A stretch of DNA of 29,310 nt, from contig JBDKTL010000018.1 in assembly GCA_039698055.1 (NCBI GenBank), forward strand, positions 1 through 29,310, given 5' to 3'. This DNA comes from Methanoregula sp. (GTDB taxonomy: Archaea > Halobacteriota > Methanomicrobia > Methanomicrobiales > Methanospirillaceae). Below, piece after piece: positions 2,263 to 25,919 of this stretch. The notes below the pieces were generated by a model. The model saw only the letters and a list, made by a program, of their open reading frames with translations. It had not been told where the DNA came from and did not search any database. The stretch's first letter is position 1. Each line of letters begins with the position of its first letter. A program made the translations under genes and the position numbers.

Positions 2263-2621
2263 TTTTTTTTAAACTTTAAAAAATCAGGCCGTTGTAGATG
2301 AGAACCATATCGTCCGGCGCGAGGCAAGAGGTCTCTGCCATGGCTACTGCCTTAACCTTTTTGGAAATCCGGCTCGGAAGGTGGATTTGCGATAAAAGGA
2401 GTTGATGAAGCCAAAAAGGGGTGCAATAATTACCCGTTAAAAAAATCCCTGTCAATAAAAGCGGCCATGACGACGTGGACAGAGAGGGAGAGGCCTTTTT
2501 TTCCGGAGCCTGTGGCAACCGGATAATCACGGTTAAATAATGTAAACGGCAATATTCGTTTACGCCGGAAGCCCGGCCTGCAACAAGACGCCGGCTCTTG
2601 ATCGCGGAGAAAAAAATTACC

Positions 2622-4871
2622 ATGAAACTGCCCCGCCTGAACCTCACAATCTGGATACTGCTGGGGTTCAGCCTCGGGATTATCACCGGGCTGGTCTTTG
2701 GCGATCTCTGCTCGGTCATGAAACCCGCAAGCGAGGCATTCATCAAGATCTGGCAGATCACGATCCTGCCGTCTGTCGCGCTCTCCCTTATTGTCGGTAT
2801 CGGGAGCCTCAGACGGGACACGGCAAAAGCAATCGCGCTCAAGGCATTCCTGATCCTCCTTTTGTTCTGGATAATCTGTGTGATCGGGTATTTCTCGTTC
2901 CAGATGGCATTTCCCCCCCGGGTAGAAGCCTCGTTCTTCAGTACCCAGCAGCTGGCCGCAACAACACCCGTCAACCTCATCGACCAGTTCATACCGGCAA
3001 ATCCCTTCCTGTCGCTCGCGGACGGGATTATCCCTGCCACCGTCCTCTTCTGCCTGTTTCTTGGCTTTGCCCTGATGCTTGACGACGGGAGCGGGCCAAT
3101 CGTAAACATCCTCCGGACCCTTTTGCAGGCGCTCGACCGCATGACGCACATCATCGCAATGACCTTTCCGGTCGGCATCTTTGTCATCACTGCCGTCACG
3201 GCCGGGACCCTGACCTTCGAGGGGTTTTTGGATCTCCAGGTATTCCTCATTACCCTTGCGGCTGCTGCAGTCCTGCTCGGTCTTGTCGTCATGCCGCTTT
3301 TAATCACGTGTTTTACCACGTTTCGCTACCGGGACATCCTTGCCGCCGCCTCAAGGGCGATGCTCCTTGCATTCTCGACCGGCACCGAATTCATCACCCT
3401 GCCGCTTATCTCCGAAGGTGTGGAGAAACTATTCCGTGGCAGGGACTGGAACCCCGATACCCACAGCGTGAGCGACGACGAGGCAGATGACCGTAAAAAT
3501 GACCCGGGCAGAAAAGACGTCCGGTCGTACAGCGAGATCCTGGTCCCGGTCGCCTATACCTTCCCGCTGCTTGGCGGACTCGTCCCCTTTCTTTTTATTC
3601 TCTTCGTGGCATGGCTCTACAAGAACCCGCTGGATCTCATGGAACAGGTCCAGCTCGTCGTCGTTGGTATCCCCAGTTTCTTTGGCTCGTCCAAGCTCTC
3701 GGTGATATCGCTCCTTGACCTGATGCACCTTCCCGAAGATGCGTACAACCTGTACCTCAGCTCGGGGATCCTGCGGCAGGCGTTTGTTGCCCCCTTGAGC
3801 GTGATATCGATCTTCTCGTTCTCTGCCATCACCATCGCCCTCACCACGAACCGGGCCAAGTTCCGGTGGAAGAGGGCGGTCCTGTCGGTCATTACTGTCG
3901 TCGTTCTCGCCGCACTCCTGATTGCCGGGCTGCATGCCGGCTTTGCCCAGATGCTGACCGGTACGTATCACGGGGCTGACCAGATTGCCAAAATCGAGCT
4001 GCCCCTTGATCAGGAAGGACGGCGACTCGACACGGTCGTGAACACAACGGTCTGCCTGCACAAGGAGGATGTACCGGCGGTCGCCCCCCCGCCACCCGGC
4101 CCGCAGGATGAGATCCGGCAGATCCGGGAGAGGGGCGTCCTCCGCGTCGGGTATAACCAGAACAATGTCCCGTTCGTATTCTTCAACGGCAACGGCGAAC
4201 TGGTGGGGTACGACGTGGAGATGGCCTACGATCTTGCCCGGACCCTCAATATCTCCCGGATCGAGTTTGTTCCCATCACGGGAATCACCCTTGCTAAATC
4301 CCTTGACAGCGGTTACTGCGACATCGTCATGTCTGCGGTCGTGGTGAATGCGGACAGGCTCGACGCGATGAAATTCACCGACCCGACCGTTACCGTCCAC
4401 CTTGCGTTTGTTGTCCCGGATGGGAAAAAGGATGAGTTCACGCAGCTTTCTGACGTGAAAAAGATGGACGGACTGAGGGTTGCGGTGTACAACAACACGG
4501 CGCTTGTCCCGGTGGCACAGCAGCTGCTCCCCGGCGCGACGATCGTCCCGATCGATGCAAAGGAAGAGTTCTTTGAAGAGAGGAAGGCGGATATCCTCAT
4601 GATCCCCGCCGAGGAAGGGTATACCCTGACCCTGCAGTACCCGTTCTTCGATGTGGCCATCATCAAGCCGTACGATTCCTACCAGATGACGTACGGGTAC
4701 CCGATAGCAAAGGACAGCAGCGATTCCTACCTCCTCGCGCTCAACTACTGGATCAGGATGGAGAAGGACTACGGGATGCTTGATAAGAAGTACGATTACT
4801 GGGTGCTGGGTAAAATTCCGGGATCGGTCGAACCCCGCTGGTCCGTGGTGCGAAACGTGCTGCACTGGTAA
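2622..4871 (+). CDS. Dicarboxylate/amino acid:cation symporter (SDF/DAACS) fused to a C-terminal family-3 solute-binding domain
   Basis: Multi-TM N-terminal half (FIPANPFLSLADG, FPVGIF, AFSTG...TLPLI). The C-terminus has IRERGVLRVGY...PFVFFN...GELVGYDVEMAYDLA, the SBP_bac_3 signature. Confidence 0.9.
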   Translation: MKLPRLNLTIWILLGFSLGIITGLVFGDLCSVMKPASEAFIKIWQITILPSVALSLIVGIGSLRRDTAKAIALKAFLILLLFWIICVIGYFSFQMAFPPRVEASFFSTQQLAATTPVNLIDQFIPANPFLSLADGIIPATVLFCLFLGFALMLDDGSGPIVNILRTLLQALDRMTHIIAMTFPVGIFVITAVTAGTLTFEGFLDLQVFLITLAAAAVLLGLVVMPLLITCFTTFRYRDILAAASRAMLLAFSTGTEFITLPLISEGVEKLFRGRDWNPDTHSVSDDEADDRKNDPGRKDVRSYSEILVPVAYTFPLLGGLVPFLFILFVAWLYKNPLDLMEQVQLVVVGIPSFFGSSKLSVISLLDLMHLPEDAYNLYLSSGILRQAFVAPLSVISIFSFSAITIALTTNRAKFRWKRAVLSVITVVVLAALLIAGLHAGFAQMLTGTYHGADQIAKIELPLDQEGRRLDTVVNTTVCLHKEDVPAVAPPPPGPQDEIRQIRERGVLRVGYNQNNVPFVFFNGNGELVGYDVEMAYDLARTLNISRIEFVPITGITLAKSLDSGYCDIVMSAVVVNADRLDAMKFTDPTVTVHLAFVVPDGKKDEFTQLSDVKKMDGLRVAVYNNTALVPVAQQLLPGATIVPIDAKEEFFEERKADILMIPAEEGYTLTLQYPFFDVAIIKPYDSYQMTYGYPIAKDSSDSYLLALNYWIRMEKDYGMLDKKYDYWVLGKIPGSVEPRWSVVRNVLHW

Positions 4872-7161: not shown

Positions 7162-8016
7162 GGGTAATGTACTATTTTAGCCCCTAAATCCAAGAAGGAT
7201 TTACGGAGTGAAAAATGGTAAAAATTGCATGCCCAAAATGCAATTCAAAAAAGTTATACAAAATGAGTAGTGGAAAAAGACGCTGCTCTGAATGCAAGTA
7301 TGACTTCATTCCTCACAATTTACCCTTGAGATTAACGAGGGAAGAATGGAAACAGATCATTCATTTATTCCTCATGGAACAGAATTCCAACTCTATTATT
7401 GAACGAACTCGGTTCGAGAGACGTCGTGTATTCAGGGCATTAACCAAGATCCGAATTGTCTTGGCCACAGATGTACCTAAGATTTTTTCCGGCACAGTAG
7501 AAGTTGATGAAACATATGTCGGGGGTCAATGGAAAAACAAACGAAAGTCGATTCGTGATCACGGTACAAAACGAGGCCGAGGTACTAAGAAACAACCGGT
7601 ATTTGGAATCCTTTGTCGGAATGGTCAGGTCTGGGCCGAAGTCGTTGATGACGTTGAAGCTGACACGCTTCAACCACTTATCTCAAGAAAAGTATCAACT
7701 GGATCTACCGTCTGCTCTGATACCTGGAAAGCTTATACCGGAATCGCTGCCAGAGGATATGTCCATCGCCTCGTCAATCACGGTGAACGACAATACTCGG
7801 ATGGAAAAGGAAATCATATCAATGGTCTGGAGGGATTCTGGGGATTTCTCAAACGAAAACTCGCTTCGAAAGGTGGGATAACCAAACAGAAACTTCCACT
7901 TTATCTCGCTGAATACATCTGGAGATACAATCATCGCAACGATTCTGATAAGATTAAGATGCAGAGAATCTTACTCTTGTTGGAAAATTGTTAGGGGCTG
8001 GATTGGTACTTTACCC
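7162..8016 (+). mobile_element. Complete IS1595-family insertion sequence (855 bp)
   Basis: 26-bp imperfect terminal IRs: 7162-7187 GGGTAATGTACTATTTTAGCCCCTAA versus the reverse complement of 7991-8016 GGGTAAAGTACCAATCCAGCCCCTAA (21/26). Both sides carry A8 (7154-7161, 8017-8024), consistent with an 8-bp TSD. Confidence 0.92.
7215..7994 (+). CDS. IS1595-family (ISXO2-like) DDE transposase with N-terminal Zn ribbon
   Basis: CPKC...CSEC, VEVDETYVGG, KRGRGT, SDTWKAY, VNHG, HINGLEGFWGFLKR, YLAEYIWRYN. Confidence 0.95.
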   Translation: MVKIACPKCNSKKLYKMSSGKRRCSECKYDFIPHNLPLRLTREEWKQIIHLFLMEQNSNSIIERTRFERRRVFRALTKIRIVLATDVPKIFSGTVEVDETYVGGQWKNKRKSIRDHGTKRGRGTKKQPVFGILCRNGQVWAEVVDDVEADTLQPLISRKVSTGSTVCSDTWKAYTGIAARGYVHRLVNHGERQYSDGKGNHINGLEGFWGFLKRKLASKGGITKQKLPLYLAEYIWRYNHRNDSDKIKMQRILLLLENC

Positions 8017-11465: not shown

Positions 11466-11648
11466 ATGACGAACGTAAACCGGATAGAGATCGTGACAAT
11501 TATCGAGGGCATTTTAATCGTATTATTCGGTGCCGGGATCTATTTTGCATTGCCGATGGTTATCACGGGATTGCTGGGGGCTGTATTCATCATCGTGGGC
11601 ATATATGTTGTTATTAACGGGTTTTTTAAAAAGTTCAGAAATCCCTAA
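11466..11648 (+). CDS. Small membrane protein (60 aa, 2 TM)
   Basis: Strong RBS GGGAGG upstream, two hydrophobic helices and a basic C-terminus. Confidence 0.7.
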   Translation: MTNVNRIEIVTIIEGILIVLFGAGIYFALPMVITGLLGAVFIIVGIYVVINGFFKKFRNP

Positions 11649-11859
11649 AAACGATCCGGTAATTTTTTTTGGTAATTGTCCGGGCAGACCAGGCCTTATC
11701 GCATCAAATCCCGGGAAATACGGAGCAGGCACAGACAGCCCCGCATGGAGATCCCAATATCAGATCCGATTGATCCGAGGCATTGTCATCGCAAGCGCTA
11801 TCAGTGAGAACGATCACCACATTACTAAGAAACGTAATTCATCGGGAACGGATCATCTC

Positions 11860-12171
11860 ATGCACCGCATCATCGAACAGAACCTAAACGACATTATCAG
11901 GATATGCACTCACCGCAGGGTCCGTCGTCTCGCAGCATTCGGTTCTGCAACTGATGACCGGTTTGATCCCGACAGAAGCGATCTTGATCTGCTCGTAGAG
12001 TTTGAGGATATGCAACCCGCGGAGCATGCAGATCAGTACTTCGGGCTTACCGAGGATCTCGAACAGCTGCTCAACCGGCCAGTTGATCTTGTCGAGCCGG
12101 GAGGAGTCCGTAATCCGTATTTCCGAAAGTCCTTTGAAGAAACGCAGGTTGAAATTTATGCAGCCGCATGA
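11860..12171 (+). CDS. Minimal nucleotidyltransferase (MNT/MntA-type antitoxin)
   Basis: ATG at 11860; RRLAAFGSATDDRFDPDRSDLDLLVEF (GS...DxD) and RPVDLV...RNPYF. Confidence 0.9.
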   Translation: MHRIIEQNLNDIIRICTHRRVRRLAAFGSATDDRFDPDRSDLDLLVEFEDMQPAEHADQYFGLTEDLEQLLNRPVDLVEPGGVRNPYFRKSFEETQVEIYAAA

Positions 12172-12502
12172 AATAAAAAAATATTTTTTCGATATCGCGG
12201 AAGCATGCGATCTGATTGCGCAGTTTACCTCCGGTAAAACTCTGGCTGATTACCAGAACGATCCATTACTTCGATCGGGTGTCGAGCGCCAGTTTGAAAT
12301 CATGGGCGAGGCGCTCAACCAGGCAATACAATACGACCCCTCTGTTGCAGAATTGATCAGCAATTCATCGCGGATTAGTTCTTTCCGTAACCGGCTGATT
12401 CACGGGTACGCAACAATTTCAGACAGCGTTGTATGGGGTGTATTGGAAACCAACCTGCCCGTGCTCAGCCGTGAAGTAAAGGAACTGCTGGACAGCGACT
12501 GA
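12158..12502 (+). CDS. HEPN (DUF86/HepT-like) RNase toxin
   Basis: Overlaps the MNT 3' end; VERQFEIMGEA and the R-x4-H-x-Y motif RNRLIHGY. Confidence 0.9.
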   Translation: MQPHEIKKYFFDIAEACDLIAQFTSGKTLADYQNDPLLRSGVERQFEIMGEALNQAIQYDPSVAELISNSSRISSFRNRLIHGYATISDSVVWGVLETNLPVLSREVKELLDSD

Positions 12503-12631
12503 TTCATAATTATAATCGTTACACTTTTAAAAGCGTCGATACGGGTATGAACCTTTATAGCTCGTCTTTGTACTTACCAGTCAAATCCCCCATCTACTTA
12601 CTATTCCCTACAATCACCCCATCCCCAACCC

Positions 12632-12665: not shown

Positions 12666-12951
12666 CATCAGAGCCCAAAAACCTCCGAATCCAGCCAATC
12701 GGGGCACAATTGCCCCGAATTTCAAAAACAAAGCTCAATCCGGCCCCCCGTTTTTCCCCTGACCGTGCCAACCCTCTAACCCTCCCTCGCTTCGCAGGAA
12801 CAAGTGAGGCCTCTGTATCGAGCCCTCACATTTCCCCAAGAGCAGCTGAAATTCCCGGTCCGCAACAAAACGATACCCATATTGGGAATAATATACAAAT
12901 GGCAGTTTGGATCGGATCTTTTTCCTTGTGTTCCGGCCCGTGGTGAACCTG

Positions 12952-14628
12952 ATGAAATCGTGTGTTACTCTCGTTCCTGCCGTTTTGTTGATCCTGCTGA
13001 TAATCGCCGTTCCGGTATCCGGAGCGGTGGTCTGCACCTCCCCCGCCAGATGCCTCACCCCGCAGCAGGCGGCAGAGCAGTTCGGCGCCGGAAATTATGT
13101 CCTTACATCCCGCGATGTGTGCGGTTACCTCACCGATCCCACCGGTGCCCGTACCGCCCAGTACTGCTATGCCCCGGTGGCAACCGTGGTCACGACTACC
13201 GTCCCTTTGAGGATAGTGCCAAGGACAACGCAGACGACCGCAGGCTCCGGCCTGATCGCACCGGCCGTTACGACAACGGAGCCGACAAACGTCACAACAA
13301 CGGTTCCTGTACTTACCACGCTCACTACACTGCCTGCCCGAACGATCGCTACAGTAACACAAACTCCCGCCCAGCCGGTGAAGACAACGGCACCGGGTGT
13401 TGTCCCGGCAGCAGTCCCGGCAGGAGTGACTCCTTTGGCGAGTAACGGGACAAACAGTTCTGCACAGGGACCTGCTGGTCCGGGGCAGGCACAGCCAGAC
13501 CAGGGAGGACTCCCCGGTGTTTACCTGGTTGTCGGGGGTCTGCTTGGCCTTGGTATCATCGGAGGACTCGCATACCATGGACTCACAAAAAAACCCGGAG
13601 AACTCAAGGGCAAGGCCGGGTTTATCGATCCCGCCAGTGGAGGAGACATAGATCCTGCCGGTAAAGAATTTGGCGATGGCGACGGAGATTTCTCAGGACC
13701 GGGTGGCAATGGAATGGGACATGGGGGTGGATTCTCGGGACCGGGAGGTAAAGGTCTGGGAGATGGCGGGGACTTCTCGGGACCGGGGGGGAGTGGCATA
13801 GGACACGGTGGTGGATTCTCGGGACCGGGAGGTGTCGGACCCGGAGATGGCGGAGATTTCTCCGGACCGGGGGGCAGTGGCATAGGACACGGTGGTGGAT
13901 TCTCTGGACCAGGAGGTATTGGACCCGGAGATGGCGGAGGTTTCACCACGCCGGGTGGTAGTGGGCCTGATGACGGAACCGGTTTCTCCGGGCCGGGGGG
14001 TATCGGACCCGGGGATGGCGGTGGATTTGGCGGCCTTGGCGGGTCGCTGTCCGGTCTCACGCTTCCCGAGGCGCGTGACGCCCTGATCAATCTCTGGATG
14101 ACCAACGGGTCATTCAGTCAGGGCATGGGTACCGATCCCATCGGAACCTTAGAAAATCTCGGTCTCAAATTTGGTGATGAAGAAAAAGGCATCATAAAAA
14201 AGATCAACTGGAGCGGGTTAAACCAGAAAAAAATGGAAGATGGGGGAGACGACGGGGGAGGAGATGATGGCGGTGGAGAAGGAGGAGACGATGGCGGTGG
14301 AGATGGAGGAGATGATGGCGGCGGGGATGATGGCGGCGATGGTGGGGACGGCGGAGACGATGGGGGAGGAGACGACGGAGGAGATAGTGGAGACGGGGGT
14401 AATGGAGGCGATGACGGTGGGGGAGATAACGGTGGAGGAGACGGAGGAGAGGGTGGAGATGGCGGTAACGGGGGTGACGGTGGAGAAGGAGGCGATGTTG
14501 GCGGCGGCGGAGGTGGAGAAATCGGGGGCGGCGGCGGAGTTAAGGATGTCAACCCGGCAGGAGCGGATCAAAAACTCATAGAAAAGCTGCTCGATATGCA
14601 AAAAGGTAGCGGGGGAAATAGTATCTGA
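12952..14628 (+). CDS. Single-pass membrane protein: signal peptide, 4-Cys ectodomain, Thr/Pro stalk, TM helix, Gly-rich repeats, NHLP/Nif11-leader-like module, Gly/Asp tail (558 aa)
   Basis: RBS GGTGA then MKSCVTLVPAVLLILLIIAVPVSG; CTSPARC...VCGY...QYCY; T/P-rich linker; TM VYLVVGGLLGLGIIGGLAY followed by KK; PEARDALINLWMTNGSFSQGMGTDPIGTLENLGLKFGDEEKGIIKKINWS. Confidence 0.75.
   Translation: MKSCVTLVPAVLLILLIIAVPVSGAVVCTSPARCLTPQQAAEQFGAGNYVLTSRDVCGYLTDPTGARTAQYCYAPVATVVTTTVPLRIVPRTTQTTAGSGLIAPAVTTTEPTNVTTTVPVLTTLTTLPARTIATVTQTPAQPVKTTAPGVVPAAVPAGVTPLASNGTNSSAQGPAGPGQAQPDQGGLPGVYLVVGGLLGLGIIGGLAYHGLTKKPGELKGKAGFIDPASGGDIDPAGKEFGDGDGDFSGPGGNGMGHGGGFSGPGGKGLGDGGDFSGPGGSGIGHGGGFSGPGGVGPGDGGDFSGPGGSGIGHGGGFSGPGGIGPGDGGGFTTPGGSGPDDGTGFSGPGGIGPGDGGGFGGLGGSLSGLTLPEARDALINLWMTNGSFSQGMGTDPIGTLENLGLKFGDEEKGIIKKINWSGLNQKKMEDGGDDGGGDDGGGEGGDDGGGDGGDDGGGDDGGDGGDGGDDGGGDDGGDSGDGGNGGDDGGGDNGGGDGGEGGDGGNGGDGGEGGDVGGGGGGEIGGGGGVKDVNPAGADQKLIEKLLDMQKGSGGNSI
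13690..14025 (+). repeat. Coding tandem repeat: 8 x 42 bp (FSGPGGxGxG[H/D]GG[G/D])
   Basis: Units FSGPGGNGMGHGGG, FSGPGGKGLGDGGD, FSGPGGSGIGHGGG, FSGPGGVGPGDGGD, FSGPGGSGIGHGGG, FSGPGGIGPGDGGG, FTTPGGSGPDDGTG, FSGPGGIGPGDGGG. H and D alternate in the first six units, giving an 84-bp higher-order period. Confidence 0.95.
14236..14538 (+). repeat. Low-complexity Gly/Asp(Glu) coding tract (GGD/GGGDD repeats, ~100 aa)
   Basis: EDGGDDGGGDDGGGEGGDDGGGDGGDD...GGGGG with varied codons. Confidence 0.9.
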
Positions 14629-14633
14629 TAGTG

Positions 14634-15617
14634 TCAGTCATGGTTTGTGGAAAAGAACGAATGTCTCGTGATCAGTGATCGCAATTCACCAGCGGAAGGA
14701 CGGGCAGAGCCCAGCATATCGAGGTGCATAAGGGCCTCCCCGCAATACATTTCCGTGATGCATGCCATTTTTTGCAGGACACCCCCCTCAATCAGGCGCC
14801 CGCGAACGACTTCCTGCATACGACGGTCGGTTCGTGCCAGCGCCAGGATCTTCAATACGTCCTCCCGCCCTGCTTCATCGAGGGAATCCAGGTAAAGAGC
14901 GACGGGCAGGGTGCGGGTGCCCTTTGCCAGGTCCCTGCTCCAGGGAGCCACAAATATATCAATAGCATCGGAAACAAGTTGCATCGCGGTTCCAAAAGAT
15001 TTCCCAAGAGCTGCACAGCGATCCACTGATTCATCCGGCGCATCGGCATACAGGGCGGCAAGTCGTGCAAACGTCGCAAGTTCTTCACCGGTTTTCAACA
15101 TCACGGACTCCTCGACCGTTTTTGGCGACACGGTTGCCGCTCCGGTGTAAAACAGGTCAGTGTGCTGGCCGGATGCCATCGCGAAAAAACCATTCGCAAG
15201 TACAGCCTGCATCTTCGATTTTGTGATCTCTTTTGTCTTCAGGTCCCCGACTGCACGCAGGGGAAGACTGAAAAACAGGGTCGCCGCAGCAAGACTGACT
15301 TCCTCATCCCCTGCACCTTCCCATACCTCCTGTGGCAGGTCCCCGTCAGCGACATCATCGAAGAGATCGATTCCCATGAAAAAAAGCGTAGTCACTCCCG
15401 TCATGGGGACAGCAGGCCGGATATCATCGCAAAAAAGACCATACACGAGACGCGGGAAGTGAATGAACAGGGGAAAATCCGGGTCTTTGGCCCGTGCCCC
15501 GGTAAAGGCTCTCTTTAAGAGTTCCCGTTGGCGTCCCGAGGTCGCATGGCTCATCGCAGACGTTTCTGCCCAGACAAAGGCTTCCTCACGGTATTCCGGT
15601 AATAAGACTGAGCTCAT
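14634..15617 (-). CDS. Polyprenyl-synthetase-fold protein, ComQ-like putative peptide (Trp) prenyltransferase (alternative GTG start 15638)
   Basis: FARM DLFDDVADGD, GQHTDL, KTG, degenerate second motif QLVSDAIDI, SRDL-x2-G-x-RTLP. It lacks the N-terminal GKRxR and the post-FARM RRG used by chain-elongating IPP synthases. Confidence 0.75.
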   Translation of the reverse strand: MSSVLLPEYREEAFVWAETSAMSHATSGRQRELLKRAFTGARAKDPDFPLFIHFPRLVYGLFCDDIRPAVPMTGVTTLFFMGIDLFDDVADGDLPQEVWEGAGDEEVSLAAATLFFSLPLRAVGDLKTKEITKSKMQAVLANGFFAMASGQHTDLFYTGAATVSPKTVEESVMLKTGEELATFARLAALYADAPDESVDRCAALGKSFGTAMQLVSDAIDIFVAPWSRDLAKGTRTLPVALYLDSLDEAGREDVLKILALARTDRRMQEVVRGRLIEGGVLQKMACITEMYCGEALMHLDMLGSARPSAGELRSLITRHSFFSTNHD

Positions 15618-16013
15618 CTTCCCATGCCCGGTATACACAACCGGAGATGGTTCACCTCATTTTTGTAGTTACCATTCATTTCAGGGACTAAAACATTAAT
15701 TATTTGGATTTTGGTTTTTTCGTATCCCGGATTTTTTTTTAATATTGGGCCCGGGAAAAGAAGAGCGGGTTGAAACGACACAGGTTTGTGAGATGTACTG
15801 ACCCTGAGGTAAATGTTTTCATCCGGTTTTAAAAAACGACCGGCGGTACAGGAAAATAATGAGGATTCACAACAGGGATTACATCATGACCCGGATTCCG
15901 GTAACGACCGTGCCTTTCGACGATGTGATGATAAGGTACAGGGAATGTGGTTGCGGGTCCACGGTGTTTTTTCATCTTTACCCCAAGCATTTTGGGGAGT
16001 AGTAAAAAAAAGT

Positions 16014-16259
16014 CTAGCGCCGGACGCAGAAATACCCGCCACGGAGATGGTGCCTGGTGAAGAGCTCGCAGGCCGGGCAGAAGCAGCCGATGATTTTCAT
16101 GGATGTAGCCGAGGATGTTCCGCAGCCGCAGAAAAGTTCTTTTGGCTCGTGTTTTTCAAGGGAATGATGCTTGTAGTTCTGGCAGTTCAGACAGTACTTC
16201 CGGCAGATCTGCCGGTTCTCTTCGGTGTTCTCTACAACAGGCTTGTCAGAATTAATCAT
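16014..16259 (-). CDS. DUF2769-like Cys-rich small protein (81 aa)
   Basis: VENTEENRQIC...CLNCQNY...LFCGCGTS...GCFCPAC...GGYFC, the pattern of methanogen DUF2769 proteins. Confidence 0.8.
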   Translation of the reverse strand: MINSDKPVVENTEENRQICRKYCLNCQNYKHHSLEKHEPKELFCGCGTSSATSMKIIGCFCPACELFTRHHLRGGYFCVRR

Positions 16260-16562
16260 GCTTTCATCAGGTTTGCGATGATGGATAATAGGTTTTTTTA
16301 CTTGGGTTTTTTTTAAGTGTGCCAAAAACCGACCGGGCCACTCGTTATCTTCCTGCTGGTCCACCACCCGGCCCGGATTCCCGCTCCGCACTCATTCCCC
16401 GAGCCCTGGCCCAACGAACCCAGCCCACGACTGTACCTCTATGCGGGAACCGGCCAGCCATTTGACTCCAGTAAGGAGGGATGGGACTCTGCCCGGGCAC
16501 CTCCCAAAAAGCTGCCCGAAAGAGGATTTTAATCTCAAAGGGGGGAGAATTATCCCCAATCT

Positions 16563-16901
16563 TCAGTCTGCATCATCAAGAATAATATGCAGTCCATCAA
16601 TGACAAGAGGGATTTTCTTGATAATGGTCTCCCACAGGAGCTCATAATCCACACCGATATACCCATGGATCACTTTGTCCCGCAGGCCAGCAATGCTCCG
16701 CCAGGGAATATCCGGATACTCTGCACGTACCTGTTCCGGTAAAAGTTTTGTGGCCTCGCCCATAACCGCAAACTTGTACAGCACCGCGGAACGTGTCTTA
16801 TCATCAGCAACGAAAACTTCCCGGGACATCCCTTGGGTAAATTCCCGGATATCTTTTGCAGCCAGTAAGATATCCTGCAGGAGCAGGAGATACTCCCTCA
16901 T
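16563..16901 (-). CDS. HEPN (DUF86/HepT-like) RNase toxin
   Basis: AVLYKFAVMGEATK, YPDIPWRSIAGLRDKVIHGY; ATGA overlap with the upstream MNT. Confidence 0.92.
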   Translation of the reverse strand: MREYLLLLQDILLAAKDIREFTQGMSREVFVADDKTRSAVLYKFAVMGEATKLLPEQVRAEYPDIPWRSIAGLRDKVIHGYIGVDYELLWETIIKKIPLVIDGLHIILDDAD

Positions 16902-17197
16902 GCGTACACAACATCCCGATAAATTCCGTCACGGATTTCGGGCCGGAGCGCCCGTGGGGTCGCAAGATCGACGTGTCTTCCAATTTTTTCTTCAAGATAC
17001 TGCGAAAGATCAATGAGATCGAGGAGATCTGCACCTTCATTAAAATCGACAAGGATGTCCACATCGCTGTCATCCCGTGCATCTTTGCGGGCAAACGAGC
17101 CGAACACTCCAATCCGGCGGACTTTATACCGTGCGGTAAGATCACTTTGCAAGGACCTGAGCAAATCGAGAATCTCATCACGGGTTGTCATTATCAT
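16898..17197 (-). CDS. Minimal nucleotidyltransferase (MNT/MntA-type antitoxin)
   Basis: RRIGVFGSFARKDARDDSDVDILVDF and LEEKIGRHVDL. Confidence 0.92.
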   Translation of the reverse strand: MIMTTRDEILDLLRSLQSDLTARYKVRRIGVFGSFARKDARDDSDVDILVDFNEGADLLDLIDLSQYLEEKIGRHVDLATPRALRPEIRDGIYRDVVYA

Positions 17198-17475: not shown

Positions 17476-19347
17476 TCAGACCTTCTCGTAATCGATAACG
17501 CTTGCAATCGGATTCCTGAAGAGATAGCCGGAGGGGAGACGGTACAGTGCGTCCGTCGCGGGGATGAAACCCCCTTTGGCGGTGTTGGGATAGATCGTGG
17601 GTGAAATGCCGTCCATGTAGACTTTGGAGAACAGGTCCCGGTCCGCATAATTTGACCAGGGGATCTGGACAAAGGCATAATAGATGTTTTCCAGGACGAG
17701 GCGGTTTGATTCGGACGCAATGTGCGTGTGATGGGATATTGCCCGGTTATATTTGTCAACAACACTCTTTTCTCCAGGATAAGCGCTCAGTACACTACCG
17801 TTTGAGTCGAAGGTGAAGAGAACCGGGATATGCGTGAACATCGTTATGGTCACACCGTCCTCGCGGTCTTTGACCGCAGCACCTAAAAGTGCGGCGACAT
17901 TCACGCTCCGGGACAGGGTCTTCTCGTCGAGGGGCTTATCGTAGCAGGCGTTCTCATCAACCCCATGGAAGAACAGGTCACCCGAGTAACAGGCCGAATC
18001 AAATACCCCGGTTTTCTGGTAATTCTCCCAGTCGAGGTTGACATTTGTCCTGTCCCGTGAATAGATTTGAGTGCCGGCCGTGGTATTGAGAATGGAACGG
18101 AAATTGGTTTTTACATCCCGGTATTCATTGTACTTGCCCTTGTACCCGGCAGCGATATACTCTGTCAGGGTTGGGAGGATGCCATGTTGCACCATCTCGT
18201 CCCGCATCTCCCGTAAGGTCGTGAGGGAGACAAAACTCCACTCGAAATCCGCGATCTCCATCGGGCTGTGATAGAACTCGCTCTCCCACGAGGGATGTTT
18301 CCATGGCTGGTAATCCGGCGGGTACTTCTCATCGTTCCTTGTGTAAGGATAGGGGCGCATCGTCCCTGCCGCTCCCCACAGGAGAATCATATCTGCTTCA
18401 AGAGGATAATCCGCAGCCTGCCAGTTGACCCCCTTTTCTTTGAGCAGCCGGTCAGTCTCAACCGTATAGGCGACCTGATCTTTCACGTAGCCCGGAAGGT
18501 ATGCCCGGACGTCCGGATTGCCGATTGTCTCCACGGCCCCGTAATCGATGCCGGCAGCAAGGGCAACCCGGTAGTATCCGGGTGAGACATCTGATGTGTT
18601 CAGGAGATCCAAAAGGACACTGAGCTGGGTGTTGTACGCGGGGACGGGATAAGTAAAACGGGTCTTGTCGGGAACGCCGTACTCATCAATAAGGTAAAGC
18701 CCCTTCCTCAGCTCGTAGTCGCCGGCTGATGTGCTGATGATAGACTTTAATGCCTCCTTTGCCTTTGGGTCAACCGGGCCTTTTGCCGATTCGATTACCT
18801 GCATGTCATCGGTAAGGTAGCCATAATCCCCGGCGGGAAACGAGGCATCTGCTGCCCACCCGGCTTCACTGTCGCCAACCCCGTCCATTGCCCATTTTGT
18901 CACAAGGATGCGCATGGGATCATCTTTTTTCACAACCGCATCCACAAACTTATTTTCCGCACCGGAGATCTTCCGGTCCTCCGCAAAGAGGCCCATGCCG
19001 ACTGCCCACTGTGCAGCGCCCGGGTCTTTTGTATTGAGCGTATCGATAAGATCCCTGTACCGGTCAGCCGTTGCCGGGTCCATATTCCCGCTCCTGATCT
19101 CCGGCAGTTCTGGCAGCCCGGCCCGGTAATCGTACGGGCTTGCCGACAGGGCAGGGACGGTGGGACTGATGGTCGTATTATTGCCAGCTATCTCATTTAC
19201 ACTGGCAGCCTGGACCGATGACTGGTTTTTGGGGATATCCTGACTGGAAGTGCAGCCACCCGTAAAGATCAGCGCGATAACAATGAGAAAAAAGAGACAG
19301 AAAAGGCTCGCATTCCTTCCTGTGCATTGTCTGTACCCTTCGTTCAT
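17476..19347 (-). CDS. Large predicted lipoprotein of unknown function (~623 aa), possibly with a divergent transglutaminase-like core
   Basis: ATG at 19347, hydrophobic signal ending in lipobox IFTGGC, Ser/Thr linker, then a long globular region. Confidence 0.7.
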   Translation of the reverse strand: MNEGYRQCTGRNASLFCLFFLIVIALIFTGGCTSSQDIPKNQSSVQAASVNEIAGNNTTISPTVPALSASPYDYRAGLPELPEIRSGNMDPATADRYRDLIDTLNTKDPGAAQWAVGMGLFAEDRKISGAENKFVDAVVKKDDPMRILVTKWAMDGVGDSEAGWAADASFPAGDYGYLTDDMQVIESAKGPVDPKAKEALKSIISTSAGDYELRKGLYLIDEYGVPDKTRFTYPVPAYNTQLSVLLDLLNTSDVSPGYYRVALAAGIDYGAVETIGNPDVRAYLPGYVKDQVAYTVETDRLLKEKGVNWQAADYPLEADMILLWGAAGTMRPYPYTRNDEKYPPDYQPWKHPSWESEFYHSPMEIADFEWSFVSLTTLREMRDEMVQHGILPTLTEYIAAGYKGKYNEYRDVKTNFRSILNTTAGTQIYSRDRTNVNLDWENYQKTGVFDSACYSGDLFFHGVDENACYDKPLDEKTLSRSVNVAALLGAAVKDREDGVTITMFTHIPVLFTFDSNGSVLSAYPGEKSVVDKYNRAISHHTHIASESNRLVLENIYYAFVQIPWSNYADRDLFSKVYMDGISPTIYPNTAKGGFIPATDALYRLPSGYLFRNPIASVIDYEKV

Positions 19348-19627
19348 CCGGTTCCCCTTTTTATGTTCCCATTTGGTTGTTATATCCGGTTGTATTATAT
19401 ATTCCCTTTTGGATTTGTGCGTATATCCGGGCTCCACATCCGGCTCCGGAATATCTCAAAGCCTCCTGATACCGCTCACTCGCACGAAAATTCCCGGTAA
19501 ACTACCTGTTCCGGAGCCCACTCGTCCCCTGAAGTGAAGATCTGGAACGTCATTTGTAAAAAATCACTTCCCAATCTTAATCAGGGAATACTCCTGTGAT
19601 GTATGTATCCCACACACCAGGTGCATC

Positions 19628-21139
19628 ATGAAAAAAATCCTGACCCTTACGATCCTCCTTATCTGTGTAACCGCGATCCTCGCTGCAGGCTGTACAACCG
19701 CACCGGCACCTGCACCGAAATCACCGGGAGACACTCTTTTTTCCCAGGCAGAAAAAGAGTTCCAGGACAACAACCTGCACGCTGCCGAACATATCTTCAG
19801 ACTTGCGCAGGAGAACTATACCGCAGCCGGTGATACTGCTGCTGCCTTAACCGCCCGGGACAGGGCGATGACGGCACGGATGATGACCTTTGAATTCTCA
19901 AGCAACCGCACTGTCATGGACCAGAAAATTGCCGCCATCATTCCCTCTTCCTCGGCCACAGAGAGAGCCGGCTGGCTGGACGGTAACGGGACGGTAACTC
20001 TCCGAAGCGACGGGGAAGTGTGGTATCACGATGACACCGTATCAAATATTTTCTGGCACAACATGACCCTGATGCGCACGGTAAATGCCGCGATGCACTC
20101 TACCCCGTTCTACGACAAACTTGCCCCATTGGCGTTTGCAACACCGAAGAGCGGGGCTGGTCCCTACAGCGAGCCGGTCACATGGGAAGGGCTTGAAGTA
20201 CTCTCGGTCCCCCGCGAGAACCTCCCGGAAAACGGCACGCTGAAACTCTGGATACCCCTGCCCATCGAGAGCGGTCCCCAGACAAACGTGACCATCCTCT
20301 CGGTGGAACCGGCCCGGTACGTCAAATCCATGACCGGCACCCGTGCAGACCTTGGCCTTGCATACTTCGAGATCCCGCTTGACGAGATTAAGGACCCGTT
20401 CCTCAATGTCACGGCAAAATTCAGTTTCGTCCAGCACGAAGAGCACTACAGCATCGATCCCGCGAAGGTGCAGCCCTACACCACGGGTTTTGTCGAGTAC
20501 CGGAAGTACACGGCGCCCGGGAAAAATACCGCCATCACGCCGGAAATGAAGAAGAAGGCGCAGGAGATTGTGGGAAACGAGACAAACCCGTATCTCCAGG
20601 CACAGAAGATTTACGGGTATATCGTGGATACTCTCCCCTACAGTCATCCCCCCCATCTCCTGCTTGAAATGACCAATACGCCGGAGTCTTCCTATGTCCT
20701 TTCGACCGGTATCGGCGACTGTGGTGCCCAGAGCCAGTACTTTGCCGCCCTCTGCCGCTCGCTGGGTATTCCCGCACGGGTACCTGCCGGCTACCAGATG
20801 ATCGAGGGAACAGGAGGCACCCATGTCTGGGCAGAGTATTACCTTGAAGGGTATGGCTGGATCCCGGTTGACGTTACCGTCGCAGAAGGCGCCGACTGGT
20901 CGTATAATGCCACCGAAAACCAGCGGCACCAGTACAAAGAATATTTCTTTGGCAGCCTCGACCCGTACCGCTACATCATCCAGAAGGATACCGACATCCC
21001 GCTCACTCCCGGCCCCGGCGATGCGGTAGTACTGACCCGCAATGTTATCCAGTTCCCTGATGCGGTCTGCGATACCTGCGCCGATAATCCGGCAATCCTT
21101 TTCGCCGAAAACTGGAAGGTTACGGTAACACAAGGATAA
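19628..21139 (+). CDS. Transglutaminase-like domain lipoprotein
   Basis: Signal with lipobox LAAGC; catalytic triad in GDCGAQSQYFAALCRSLGIPAR, THVWAEYY and GWIPVDVT. Confidence 0.92.
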   Translation: MKKILTLTILLICVTAILAAGCTTAPAPAPKSPGDTLFSQAEKEFQDNNLHAAEHIFRLAQENYTAAGDTAAALTARDRAMTARMMTFEFSSNRTVMDQKIAAIIPSSSATERAGWLDGNGTVTLRSDGEVWYHDDTVSNIFWHNMTLMRTVNAAMHSTPFYDKLAPLAFATPKSGAGPYSEPVTWEGLEVLSVPRENLPENGTLKLWIPLPIESGPQTNVTILSVEPARYVKSMTGTRADLGLAYFEIPLDEIKDPFLNVTAKFSFVQHEEHYSIDPAKVQPYTTGFVEYRKYTAPGKNTAITPEMKKKAQEIVGNETNPYLQAQKIYGYIVDTLPYSHPPHLLLEMTNTPESSYVLSTGIGDCGAQSQYFAALCRSLGIPARVPAGYQMIEGTGGTHVWAEYYLEGYGWIPVDVTVAEGADWSYNATENQRHQYKEYFFGSLDPYRYIIQKDTDIPLTPGPGDAVVLTRNVIQFPDAVCDTCADNPAILFAENWKVTVTQG

Positions 21140-25027: not shown

Positions 25028-25843
25028 TTACACCCTCCCGATCTTCCTGATTTCTGCATCATCCGTCAATAGTTTCATCTGGTGAATCGCTATGCTGTTC
25101 AGCTTCACGAGCCGTTCCTGCTGGGAAAGAGTCTCGTTGATAAACAGGGCATTTAAGTTTTCCAGATTAGAGAGACACACGAGTTGCGAGATGTCAGCAT
25201 AATCCCGAATATTTCCGGTCTTGTCAGCGTTCGCCTCCTGCCATTCCTTTGCAGTGATACCGAATAATGCCATGTTGAGCACATCCGCTTCGGATGCGTA
25301 AATCGTAGTAATCTGCTGACGGGTAAGTTCAGCCGGTATCAGGTTCTCTTTGATAGCATCCGTATGGATCCGGTAATTGATCTTTGCCAGATTGCGCCGG
25401 ATATCCCAGCCAAGCTGTTTGCGTTCTTCATCTTTGAGCCGCTGGAATTCTTTGATAAGATAGAGTTTGAATTCGACTGAGATCCAGGACGCGAATTCAT
25501 ACGCGATATCTTTGTGAGCGTACGTTCCTCCATACCGTCCCGGTTTTGAGATGAGACCAATGGCAGCAGTCTTCTCGATCCATTGTTTGGGAGTGAGGAT
25601 AAAACTGTTGAGCCCTGAAAGTTTCCTAAACCCATCGAATTCGATGGGATTAAAATCCGGATTGTTGAGACGCTCCCATATTCCTAAGAATTCTATGGTA
25701 TTTCTGTTCCGTAACCAGTTCTGAATAATATAATCAGTCCTGTCCGGATCTTTATATCGTGCAATGTCAGTAATGCAGATATAATCCTCATCATTGAGTG
25801 TATAAATGGAAATTTCGTTATCCAGCACGTGGATCTTTGCCAT
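25028..25843 (-). CDS. KilA-N domain DNA-binding protein
   Basis: ATG at 25843; DYICITDIARYK, IIQNWLRNRNTIEFLG, GRYGGTYAHKDIAYEFASWIS, NYRIHTDAIK. Confidence 0.9.
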   Translation of the reverse strand: MAKIHVLDNEISIYTLNDEDYICITDIARYKDPDRTDYIIQNWLRNRNTIEFLGIWERLNNPDFNPIEFDGFRKLSGLNSFILTPKQWIEKTAAIGLISKPGRYGGTYAHKDIAYEFASWISVEFKLYLIKEFQRLKDEERKQLGWDIRRNLAKINYRIHTDAIKENLIPAELTRQQITTIYASEADVLNMALFGITAKEWQEANADKTGNIRDYADISQLVCLSNLENLNALFINETLSQQERLVKLNSIAIHQMKLLTDDAEIRKIGRV

Positions 25844-25893
25844 TATCGCTCTCCAATATAATCCCCAGTTTTTCTGGTGATAAAGGATCAAGT

Positions 25894-25919
25894 GCGGGGG
25901 GTGAAAGAGAGATTTCACT
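25894..25919 (-). promoter_or_regulatory. Putative operator with dyad GTGAA-N8-TTCAC upstream of the KilA-N TATA box
   Basis: 23/26 identical to 29111-29136; 51 bp from the ATG; TATA-like TTTATCA on the minus strand at 25878-25884. Confidence 0.55.

Follow-up and report, generated by a model that had tools for sequence, protein, structure and literature searches.

A prenyl diphosphate synthase-like enzyme encoded beside an NHLP-like module of a methanogen membrane protein: a candidate leader-guided prenylation pair

To our knowledge, peptide prenylation by enzymes derived from isoprenyl diphosphate synthases is known from a few bacterial systems, ComQ, PalQ and ChrPC, all of which act on free peptides. 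The trans-isoprenyl diphosphate synthase (trans-IDS)-like peptide prenyltransferases characterised so far all act on Trp, according to a review (PMC13290415). The same text describes ComQ of Bacillus as a trans-IDS-like enzyme that modifies an internal Trp of the ribosomal peptide ComX and has its second Asp-rich region repurposed for the acceptor. It also describes ChrPC, in which a terpene cyclase domain is joined to a trans-IDS-like P domain; the latter uses C10-C20 donors to prenylate a Trp located internally in a ribosomal peptide (PMC13290415). In Paenibacillus alvei, the substrate of PalQ is PalX, a precursor of the NHLP type whose NHLP domain enhances its prenylation; the complex of the two was first proposed from structure prediction (PMC10853753). 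The present paper concerns two convergent genes, gene A and gene B, on contig JBDKTL010000018.1 of Methanoregula sp. (assembly GCA_039698055.1); the window analysed is this entire 29.3-kb contig (29,310 nt) of a 2.26-Mb genome that is 93% complete. As in the PalQ-PalX system, an enzyme of the isoprenoid synthase superfamily is encoded beside an NHLP-type sequence, which in gene A is a module within a membrane protein. We put the probability that gene B prenylates gene A at roughly 0.55, judging from sequence and structure prediction. In the mechanism proposed, gene B would be derived from a trans-IDS that lost its isopentenyl diphosphate (IPP) site, would hold a prenyl diphosphate at its retained Asp-rich motif, would dock on gene A at the folded NHLP-like module of its cytoplasmic tail, and would move an isoprenyl group from the diphosphate onto this protein, most likely onto one of two invariant module Trp residues, with Trp420 favoured. 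The outcome would be a lipid on the cytoplasmic tail of a surface-exposed membrane protein.

The pair differs from each of the described systems. In PalX, a free peptide, the Trp core (DNVRRFFW) is C-terminal, and PalQ needs the Trp at the very C-terminus (PMC10853753), whereas the Trp residues of gene A are internal and its module lies within an archaeal membrane protein of 558 amino acids. The second motif of PalQ has Asp at both ends (D200, D204) and lies about 111 residues past the first motif in the numbering of that paper (PMC10853753); that of gene B, S216-D217-x-x-D220, lies about 129 residues past D87, and it is on the paper's residue numbers that motif and spacing are set apart from PalQ. 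The gene B clade also seems much closer to true synthases, and the peptides of its bacterial members are Os1348-type with minimal tails and a partner protease that joins a cyclic nucleotide monophosphate (cNMP)-binding and an M50-type domain. ComX lacks an NHLP domain and is a secreted pheromone of the ComQXPA quorum-sensing operon, whereas no kinase or regulator is encoded beside the gene A/gene B pair; no ComQ-named model was found among the NCBIfam matches. The Os1348 cluster of Pseudomonas sp. Os17 gives its name to NF038399, the only family matching the module, and Os1348 has as partners a GNAT acetyltransferase, an HExxH peptidase and a SagB-type dehydrogenase, none of them a prenyltransferase (PMC7726476). 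The first-pass annotation of this DNA knew of no archaeal equivalent, and no description of an archaeal case or of this enzyme clade was found in the literature searched.

The product of gene B matched Pfam family PF00348 with 51.8 bits (cut-off 27; E 8.3e-14), and its AlphaFold2 (AF2) model reached a predicted local distance difference test (pLDDT) score of 92.2 and a predicted template modelling score (pTM) of 0.91. The modelled fold is the all-helical trans-IDS fold, and its best PDB neighbours in Foldseek were archaeal and bacterial geranylgeranyl diphosphate (GGPP) and polyprenyl synthases (template modelling (TM) score 0.79-0.82; 1wy0, 4dhd, 3nf2). Alignment of the gene B family with five housekeeping IdsA proteins of relatives (21-28% identity to gene B) revealed which elements were kept and which were lost. 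Shared with IdsA are the fold, the first Asp-rich motif (DDxxD), GQxxD, K175 (the KT lysine) and Q213 (the Gln before the second motif), whereas GGKRLRP has gone, as have the RRG past the first motif and the GK(D) past the second, and the second motif, which in housekeeping enzymes reads FQIQDDLID, lacks the DDxxD of IdsA. In the enzyme of bacterial locus L014, Glu stands where gene B has Ser216. The lost basic residues hold the diphosphate of IPP in these enzymes; chain elongation is therefore not expected for gene B, which probably cannot bind IPP. The first-pass annotation had read gene B as a synthase fold with DDVAD (D87-D91), a degenerate SDAID (S216-D220) and neither RRG nor GKRxR, and this reading was confirmed in every part; nor does the sequence give any sign of IPP elongation, with the IPP-binding motifs gone and a separate housekeeping IdsA present in the genome.

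It is extremely improbable that gene B is an ordinary GGPP synthase, the function implied by the Joint Genome Institute names of homologues P0005-P0007 and P0012 and by the PF00348 match. Against this stand the loss of all IPP-binding basic motifs, the scores far below cut-off with all 13 NCBIfam synthase models (at best 63 bits against 450; 12-40 bits against 275-600 for the equivalogs), and the presence of the true IdsA elsewhere in the genome, on contig C11, with 580 bits to the IdsA profile. With gene B that profile gave 36 bits, against 361 bits for the profile of its own homologues, which was made from homologues of at most 45% identity (P0009-P0013 and six bacterial loci). The phylogeny agreed with the distinction from GGPP-type synthases, the gene B family splitting from IdsA with 100/99 support; the tree was built without P0001 (99% identical), P0008 (a fragment), P0014 (28% identical) and L022 (truncated), and as it leaves the root within the family unresolved, no donor or direction of transfer is claimed. 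A large-scale protein-cluster (Atlas) search with gene B returned generic 'polyprenyl synthetase' clusters only.

Scans of species genomes and metagenomes yielded at least 16 loci with relatives of gene B, and the counts given here are among the matches listed. Eight enzymes are close to gene B (32-43% identity over near full length); they were found in Chloroflexota, Armatimonadota, two sister metagenome-assembled genomes of Rhizonema, Elusimicrobiota and three metagenome contigs, and the clade is spread over at least four bacterial phyla and one methanogen. A scan with the module profile detected module peptides, small open reading frames (ORFs) of 62-82 amino acids, beside the enzyme in seven of the eight close loci (one to four each, 12 in all) and in none of the eight distant loci; among the sequences used to train this profile were the peptides of L014 and L015, and the other nine were new. 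The exception among the close loci is L016 (Rhizonema), where just 634 nt lie upstream of the enzyme gene, while the peptide of its sister L017 is located about 1.1 kb upstream. All three bacterial peptides that were tested passed the NF038399 cut-off of 40, with 61.2-62.3 bits. Linkage of enzyme and module in other genomes, on which the first-pass annotation had laid weight, was thus recovered in bacteria. Being encoded beside the precursor is a trait of peptide prenyltransferases that these seven homologues display, and in the methanogen the module-bearing gene ends 5 nt away.

The enzyme gene is followed by a cNMP-binding gene in six of the eight close loci, which is complete with an M50-type domain in five and cut by the contig end in L021. 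The L015 cluster, for instance, has two peptide genes, the enzyme gene and a gene for a cNMP-M50 protease. In all three complete genes that were scanned with NCBIfam, a protease domain akin to daptide-HExxH/YydH/LiaK was accompanied by a PqqD-like recognition element. L018 instead carries HlyD, FtsX and ATP-binding cassette (ABC)-GAF transport genes upstream. After a conserved R-x-S/N-K the bacterial peptides mostly have 1-8 variable residues (VA, GA, C, F, LFV, AFG, SGV and others); they are thus nearly devoid of a variable core, and the conserved part itself would therefore be the substrate. These tails are unusually short for cores of peptides made on ribosomes and modified after translation (RiPPs), which would fit an explanation that gives gene B a small-molecule substrate, as a terpene synthase or cyclase or as a prenyltransferase of free metabolites such as Trp, and makes the NHLP-like proteins regulators or chaperones rather than substrates. 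Ord1, a free-Trp farnesyltransferase, shares the fold (PMC13290415) and appeared at Foldseek rank 48 for gene B (TM 0.74). This explanation is nevertheless very unlikely in view of the consistent RiPP-type synteny described above, with the cNMP-binding gene, the M50-type domain and the PqqD-like element, and of the predicted enzyme-module interface (below), which speaks weakly against it.

Three further observations concern these bacterial relatives. In Rhizonema (L017:5995-8789) the cluster of peptide, enzyme and protease is followed by genes for an S-adenosylmethionine methyltransferase and a cytochrome P450, which may provide further tailoring steps. In Elusimicrobiota, the four-peptide cluster has a squalene/phytoene synthase gene (L018:17903-19579; PF00494, E 2.8e-70) at a distance of about 7 kb. 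A second divergent trans-IDS-like subfamily (L019:5895-6827, L023, L026, L028 and other distant loci) has FDDVADAD and L-L-N-D-A-R-D and is devoid of GKR and RRG.

The module of gene A, searched alone against NCBIfam, matched NF038399 (Os1348 family NHLP clan) as its sole family, with E 9.5e-5 and a score of 22.4 bits that is under the cut-off of 40. In hhalign, the modules of the window and of P0016, a metagenomic orthologue of gene A, aligned with the 12 bacterial peptides at 96.6% probability (E 5.8e-10, 51 columns), and a hidden Markov model made from the 12 bacterial peptides only, searched against 43,463 six-frame ORFs of the genome, retrieved gene A at E 3.1e-5 with the next match at E 1.1. 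Because this bacterial-only profile matches gene A alone genome-wide, the resemblance of the module is, on the profile evidence, beyond chance. The joint (A2) module profile matched an 85-amino acid crystal entry, 6lk7, which is labelled 'nitrile hydratase, alpha chain' (E 1.2e-7) and which we take to be Os1348; its match to true nitrile hydratase alpha chains was weak. The AF2 model of the module consists of five helices (pLDDT 83). A search of representative sequences with the module gave five matches, one of which (P0017) was dropped as spurious, being a low-complexity repeat protein. The closest relatives of the gene A module (hhalign 98.8%) are P0018, P0019 and P0020, proteins of 121-154 amino acids in which a linker connects an apparent N-terminal export signal to the module.

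Gene A matched no Pfam family. Its description as a single-pass membrane protein in the first-pass annotation held for the one helix (around residues 189-211) and has to be amended by an additional N-terminal hydrophobic signal sequence, whereas the proposal that a leader-type module is embedded in a surface-exposed membrane protein was supported (residues 367-431 of 558), the module being part of a long protein, unlike the small proteins of the Os1348 family. Of 60 other genomes of the genus, 10 have the four-Cys extracellular domain as well, at 27-42% identity. The helix is followed by a Lys-rich stretch, which under the positive-inside rule would place the tail of gene A in the cytoplasm; as gene B has no hydrophobic segment, tail and enzyme would share this compartment. 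The orthologue P0016 (498 amino acids) has the same architecture, a module that is 80% identical, and different repeat numbers.

The two Trp residues noted earlier are indeed the only ones in gene A and both lie within the module (codons 14095, residue 382, and 14209, residue 420). The complete list of residues that are invariant across the 13 aligned modules is W18, F24, G40, E47 and W56, and the columns W18 and W56 correspond to W382 and W420, which makes Trp the sole invariant nucleophilic residue type. With low confidence, Trp420 may be preferred as acceptor, because Trp382 belongs to a W-x-DP-x-F signature that is common to nitrile hydratases and is maybe structural. The module might instead serve for docking only, recruiting gene B to an acceptor elsewhere: the C-terminal tail of gene A, another protein, a membrane or a small molecule. 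NHLP/Nif11 leaders are described as recognition domains that are folded and engage the modifying enzyme, with modification at residues beyond them (bioRxiv 10.64898/2026.10.04.756588), the PalX core follows its NHLP domain (PMC10853753), gene A and P0016 share a conserved tail, and gene B, with Ser where the second motif should begin with Asp, deviates from the pair formed by this Asp and the conserved Gln, which according to the review recognises the indole of Trp (PMC13290415). Docking without modification of the module is still unlikely, as the variable residues that follow R-x-S/N-K in the bacterial peptides leave no conserved acceptor outside the module, and the invariance of Trp argues the same way.

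The gene B family is rare, with 14 proteins in a search of 5.8 billion sequences, among them the orthologues P0002-P0007 (54-72% identity). An orthologue of gene B was found neither in 60 relatives, which have just the housekeeping IdsA (21-28% identity), nor in 400 genomes of the phylum at E 1e-15, and the module was not found in the 60 relatives. Within the genome, the sole module lies 5 nt from the sole member of the enzyme clade, the bacterial-only profile retrieving gene A alone. The genome encodes methyl-coenzyme M reductase alpha, and contig C18, the window, itself encodes the archaeal TATA-binding protein and formylmethanofuran:tetrahydromethanopterin formyltransferase and is therefore the methanogen's own. 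This patchy occurrence, the surroundings of the pair (an IS1595 transposase and two HepT/MNT pairs) and the failure of the genome searches to find the protease are what a remnant of a transferred bacterial RiPP cluster would leave, in which enzyme and module have no joint function in the archaeon. Such a remnant is distinctly unlikely: both reading frames are intact and the catalytic Asp residues are invariant, purifying conservation is seen in P0002-P0007 and in the module of P0016, whose flanking repeats vary, the module has been spliced into a protein with a genus-native N-terminal domain, and both genes occur in RNA-library contigs. These contigs, from four metatranscriptome runs (at most two samples, one study), match both genes at 99% identity or more, gene A being represented by pieces; they give no cover at 12400-12533, the two repeat regions of gene A and 15348-16400, where lack of cover proves nothing, and they document presence of both genes rather than proof of transcription, since ends and levels are not readable from contigs.

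Complex prediction for the enzyme and the module, which the first-pass annotation had envisaged as partners, gave a median score of 0.56 (runs 0.66, 0.56 and 0.23) against 0.00 for the best of three controls, in runs with at least 10% contact agreement and a partner pLDDT of at least 61. Of 80 solved complexes 58 attain the mark used, as do 2 of 110 mismatched pairs; scores up to 0.60 account for 7 of the 80 solved complexes and for both passing mismatches. Docking of the enzyme on the module thereby gains weak support; the prediction gives no contacts and points to no acceptor residue.

Several points weigh against prenylation of gene A by gene B. The score of 0.56 falls in a band where wrong passes outnumber right ones unless the guess is already likely. 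The below-threshold score of the module with NF038399 drops to 16.7 bits for the whole of gene A, and in Foldseek the AF2 module model gave four PDB matches, all with E of at least 6.5, which is no structural match; small helical domains are hard for Foldseek. The kinship with NHLP/Nif11-type leaders that had been proposed stands at the profile level, by NF038399, hhalign and the bacterial-only model. In the enzyme, the first Asp of the second motif is Ser216, and Q213, although invariant in the gene B family, is present in ordinary IdsA as well and does not discriminate. Both module Trp residues may be just core residues of a helical bundle. The module of P0018-P0020 may be extracellular, away from a cytoplasmic enzyme, and if it is exported in these proteins it would not always be a tag for a cytoplasmic enzyme. 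The two genes converge and form no operon, and the archaeal orthologues P0002-P0007 and P0016 sit on contigs of 1.5-4 kb, such that the archaeal evidence for adjacency is this locus. A protease belongs to the bacterial clusters, one of which has exporter genes, whereas a leader protease was not found in this genome (93% complete): a profile of five bacterial cNMP-M50 proteases retrieved nothing at E 0.01 or lower, and the best match of a single-protein search was just 18.7 bits, on another contig.

The locus points to a further enzyme clade, extending over at least four bacterial phyla and a methanogen, with the recognition domain inside a real membrane protein in the methanogen. The PalQ/PalX precedent lowers the novelty of kind, not that of the archaeal fused form. 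If the proposed prenylation is true, prenylation of Trp (or another residue) extends to Archaea and to whole proteins, a RiPP leader can be seen evolving into a protein-modification tag, and a compact two-gene tool for leader-guided lipidation becomes available. A wider proposal is more tentative, and we regard it as possible though doubtful: that a leader domain was domesticated as an in-cis docking site in an archaeal surface protein, that the enzyme prenylates a Trp of the full-length protein, that Trp-prenylation of a protein would thereby be known for the first time in Archaea and RiPP machinery would for the first time be seen reused to lipidate a membrane protein, and that the bacterial clade would form a new family of prenylated peptides with an intramembrane protease. 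The bacterial three-gene clusters of peptide, enzyme and cNMP-M50 protease are directly testable by heterologous expression.

Table 1. Coordinates of the gene pair and of the elements within it (positions in the window).
Feature	Position	Strand	Basis
Gene A, 558-amino acid type-I membrane protein with NHLP-like module in predicted cytoplasmic tail	12952..14628	+	ORF; no Pfam family
N-terminal hydrophobic signal sequence, residues 1-27	12952..13032	+	Hydropathy >2 over residues 1-14, MKSCVTLVPAVLLILLIIAVPVSGAVV; putative cleavage
Four-Cys extracellular domain, residues 28-80	13033..13191	+	Cys28, 34, 57, 72; genus-native
Thr/Pro/Val/Ala-rich stalk, three N-x-S/T sequons	13192..13515	+	Composition; sequons at residues 113, 165, 168
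Membrane helix, residues 189-211, then TKKPGELKGK	13516..13584	+	Hydropathy windows 185-193 >1.6; predicted topology
Gly-rich FSGPGG-type repeat linker	13612..14049	+	70 Gly in 146 residues
NHLP-clan (Os1348-like) module, residues 367-431	14050..14244	+	NF038399 (residues 377-425), bacterial-only profile, hhalign, AF2
Trp382	14095..14097	+	Invariant in 13/13 aligned modules; W of nitrile-hydratase-type W-x-DP-x-F signature
Trp420 (INWS), favoured candidate acceptor	14209..14211	+	Invariant in 13/13 aligned modules, also in P0016, P0018-P0020
Acidic GGDD repeat	14245..14532	+	60 Gly and 26 Asp in 96 residues; length different in P0016
Conserved C-terminal tail ...DQKLIEKLLDMQKGSGGNSI	14533..14625	+	Aligned with P0016 tail
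5-nt spacer separating convergent stops	14629..14633		Sequence reading
Gene B, trans-IDS-like putative prenyltransferase, 327 amino acids, probably without IPP site	14634..15617	-	PF00348, AF2, Foldseek, motif losses
Altered second motif Q213-L-V-S216-D217-A-I-D220	14958..14981	-	Q213, D217 invariant; S216 in >=90%
First Asp-rich motif D87-D-V-A-D91, predicted prenyl-diphosphate/Mg site	15345..15359	-	D87 and D91 invariant in 18/18 sequences

The arrangement of the two genes was as first annotated, convergent with stops 5 nt apart, the TGA of gene A occupying 14626-14628 and the reverse-complement TGA of gene B 14634-14636. Homologues of gene B begin at the same Met. For gene A, an in-frame TTG at 12907 offers an alternative start that would add 15 amino acids; the 15 codons upstream of the ATG (12907-12951) are conserved at the protein level in P0016, whose start is LDRIYRLVFRPVVNLMK, and 12907 rather than 12952 may be the true start.

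Two pairs of the toxin-antitoxin type, each with an MNT-type nucleotidyltransferase and a HepT-like ribonuclease, flank the gene pair, one on each side (11530-12502 and 16563-17197), and an IS1595-family transposase gene (DDE_Tnp_IS1595, E 2e-35) lies about 5 kb upstream at 7215-7994. Transposase and toxin-antitoxin pairs together suggest a variable island, and the gene A/gene B pair looks like an accessory island. Elsewhere in the window, a 757-amino acid ORF at 2598-4871 fuses a sodium:dicarboxylate symporter domain to a family-3 solute-binding domain, a 653-amino acid protein without a Pfam family (17476-19437) adjoins a transglutaminase-like protein (19628-21139), and a protein with a KilA-N domain (E 8e-23), a domain frequent in viruses and mobile elements, is encoded at 25028-25918.

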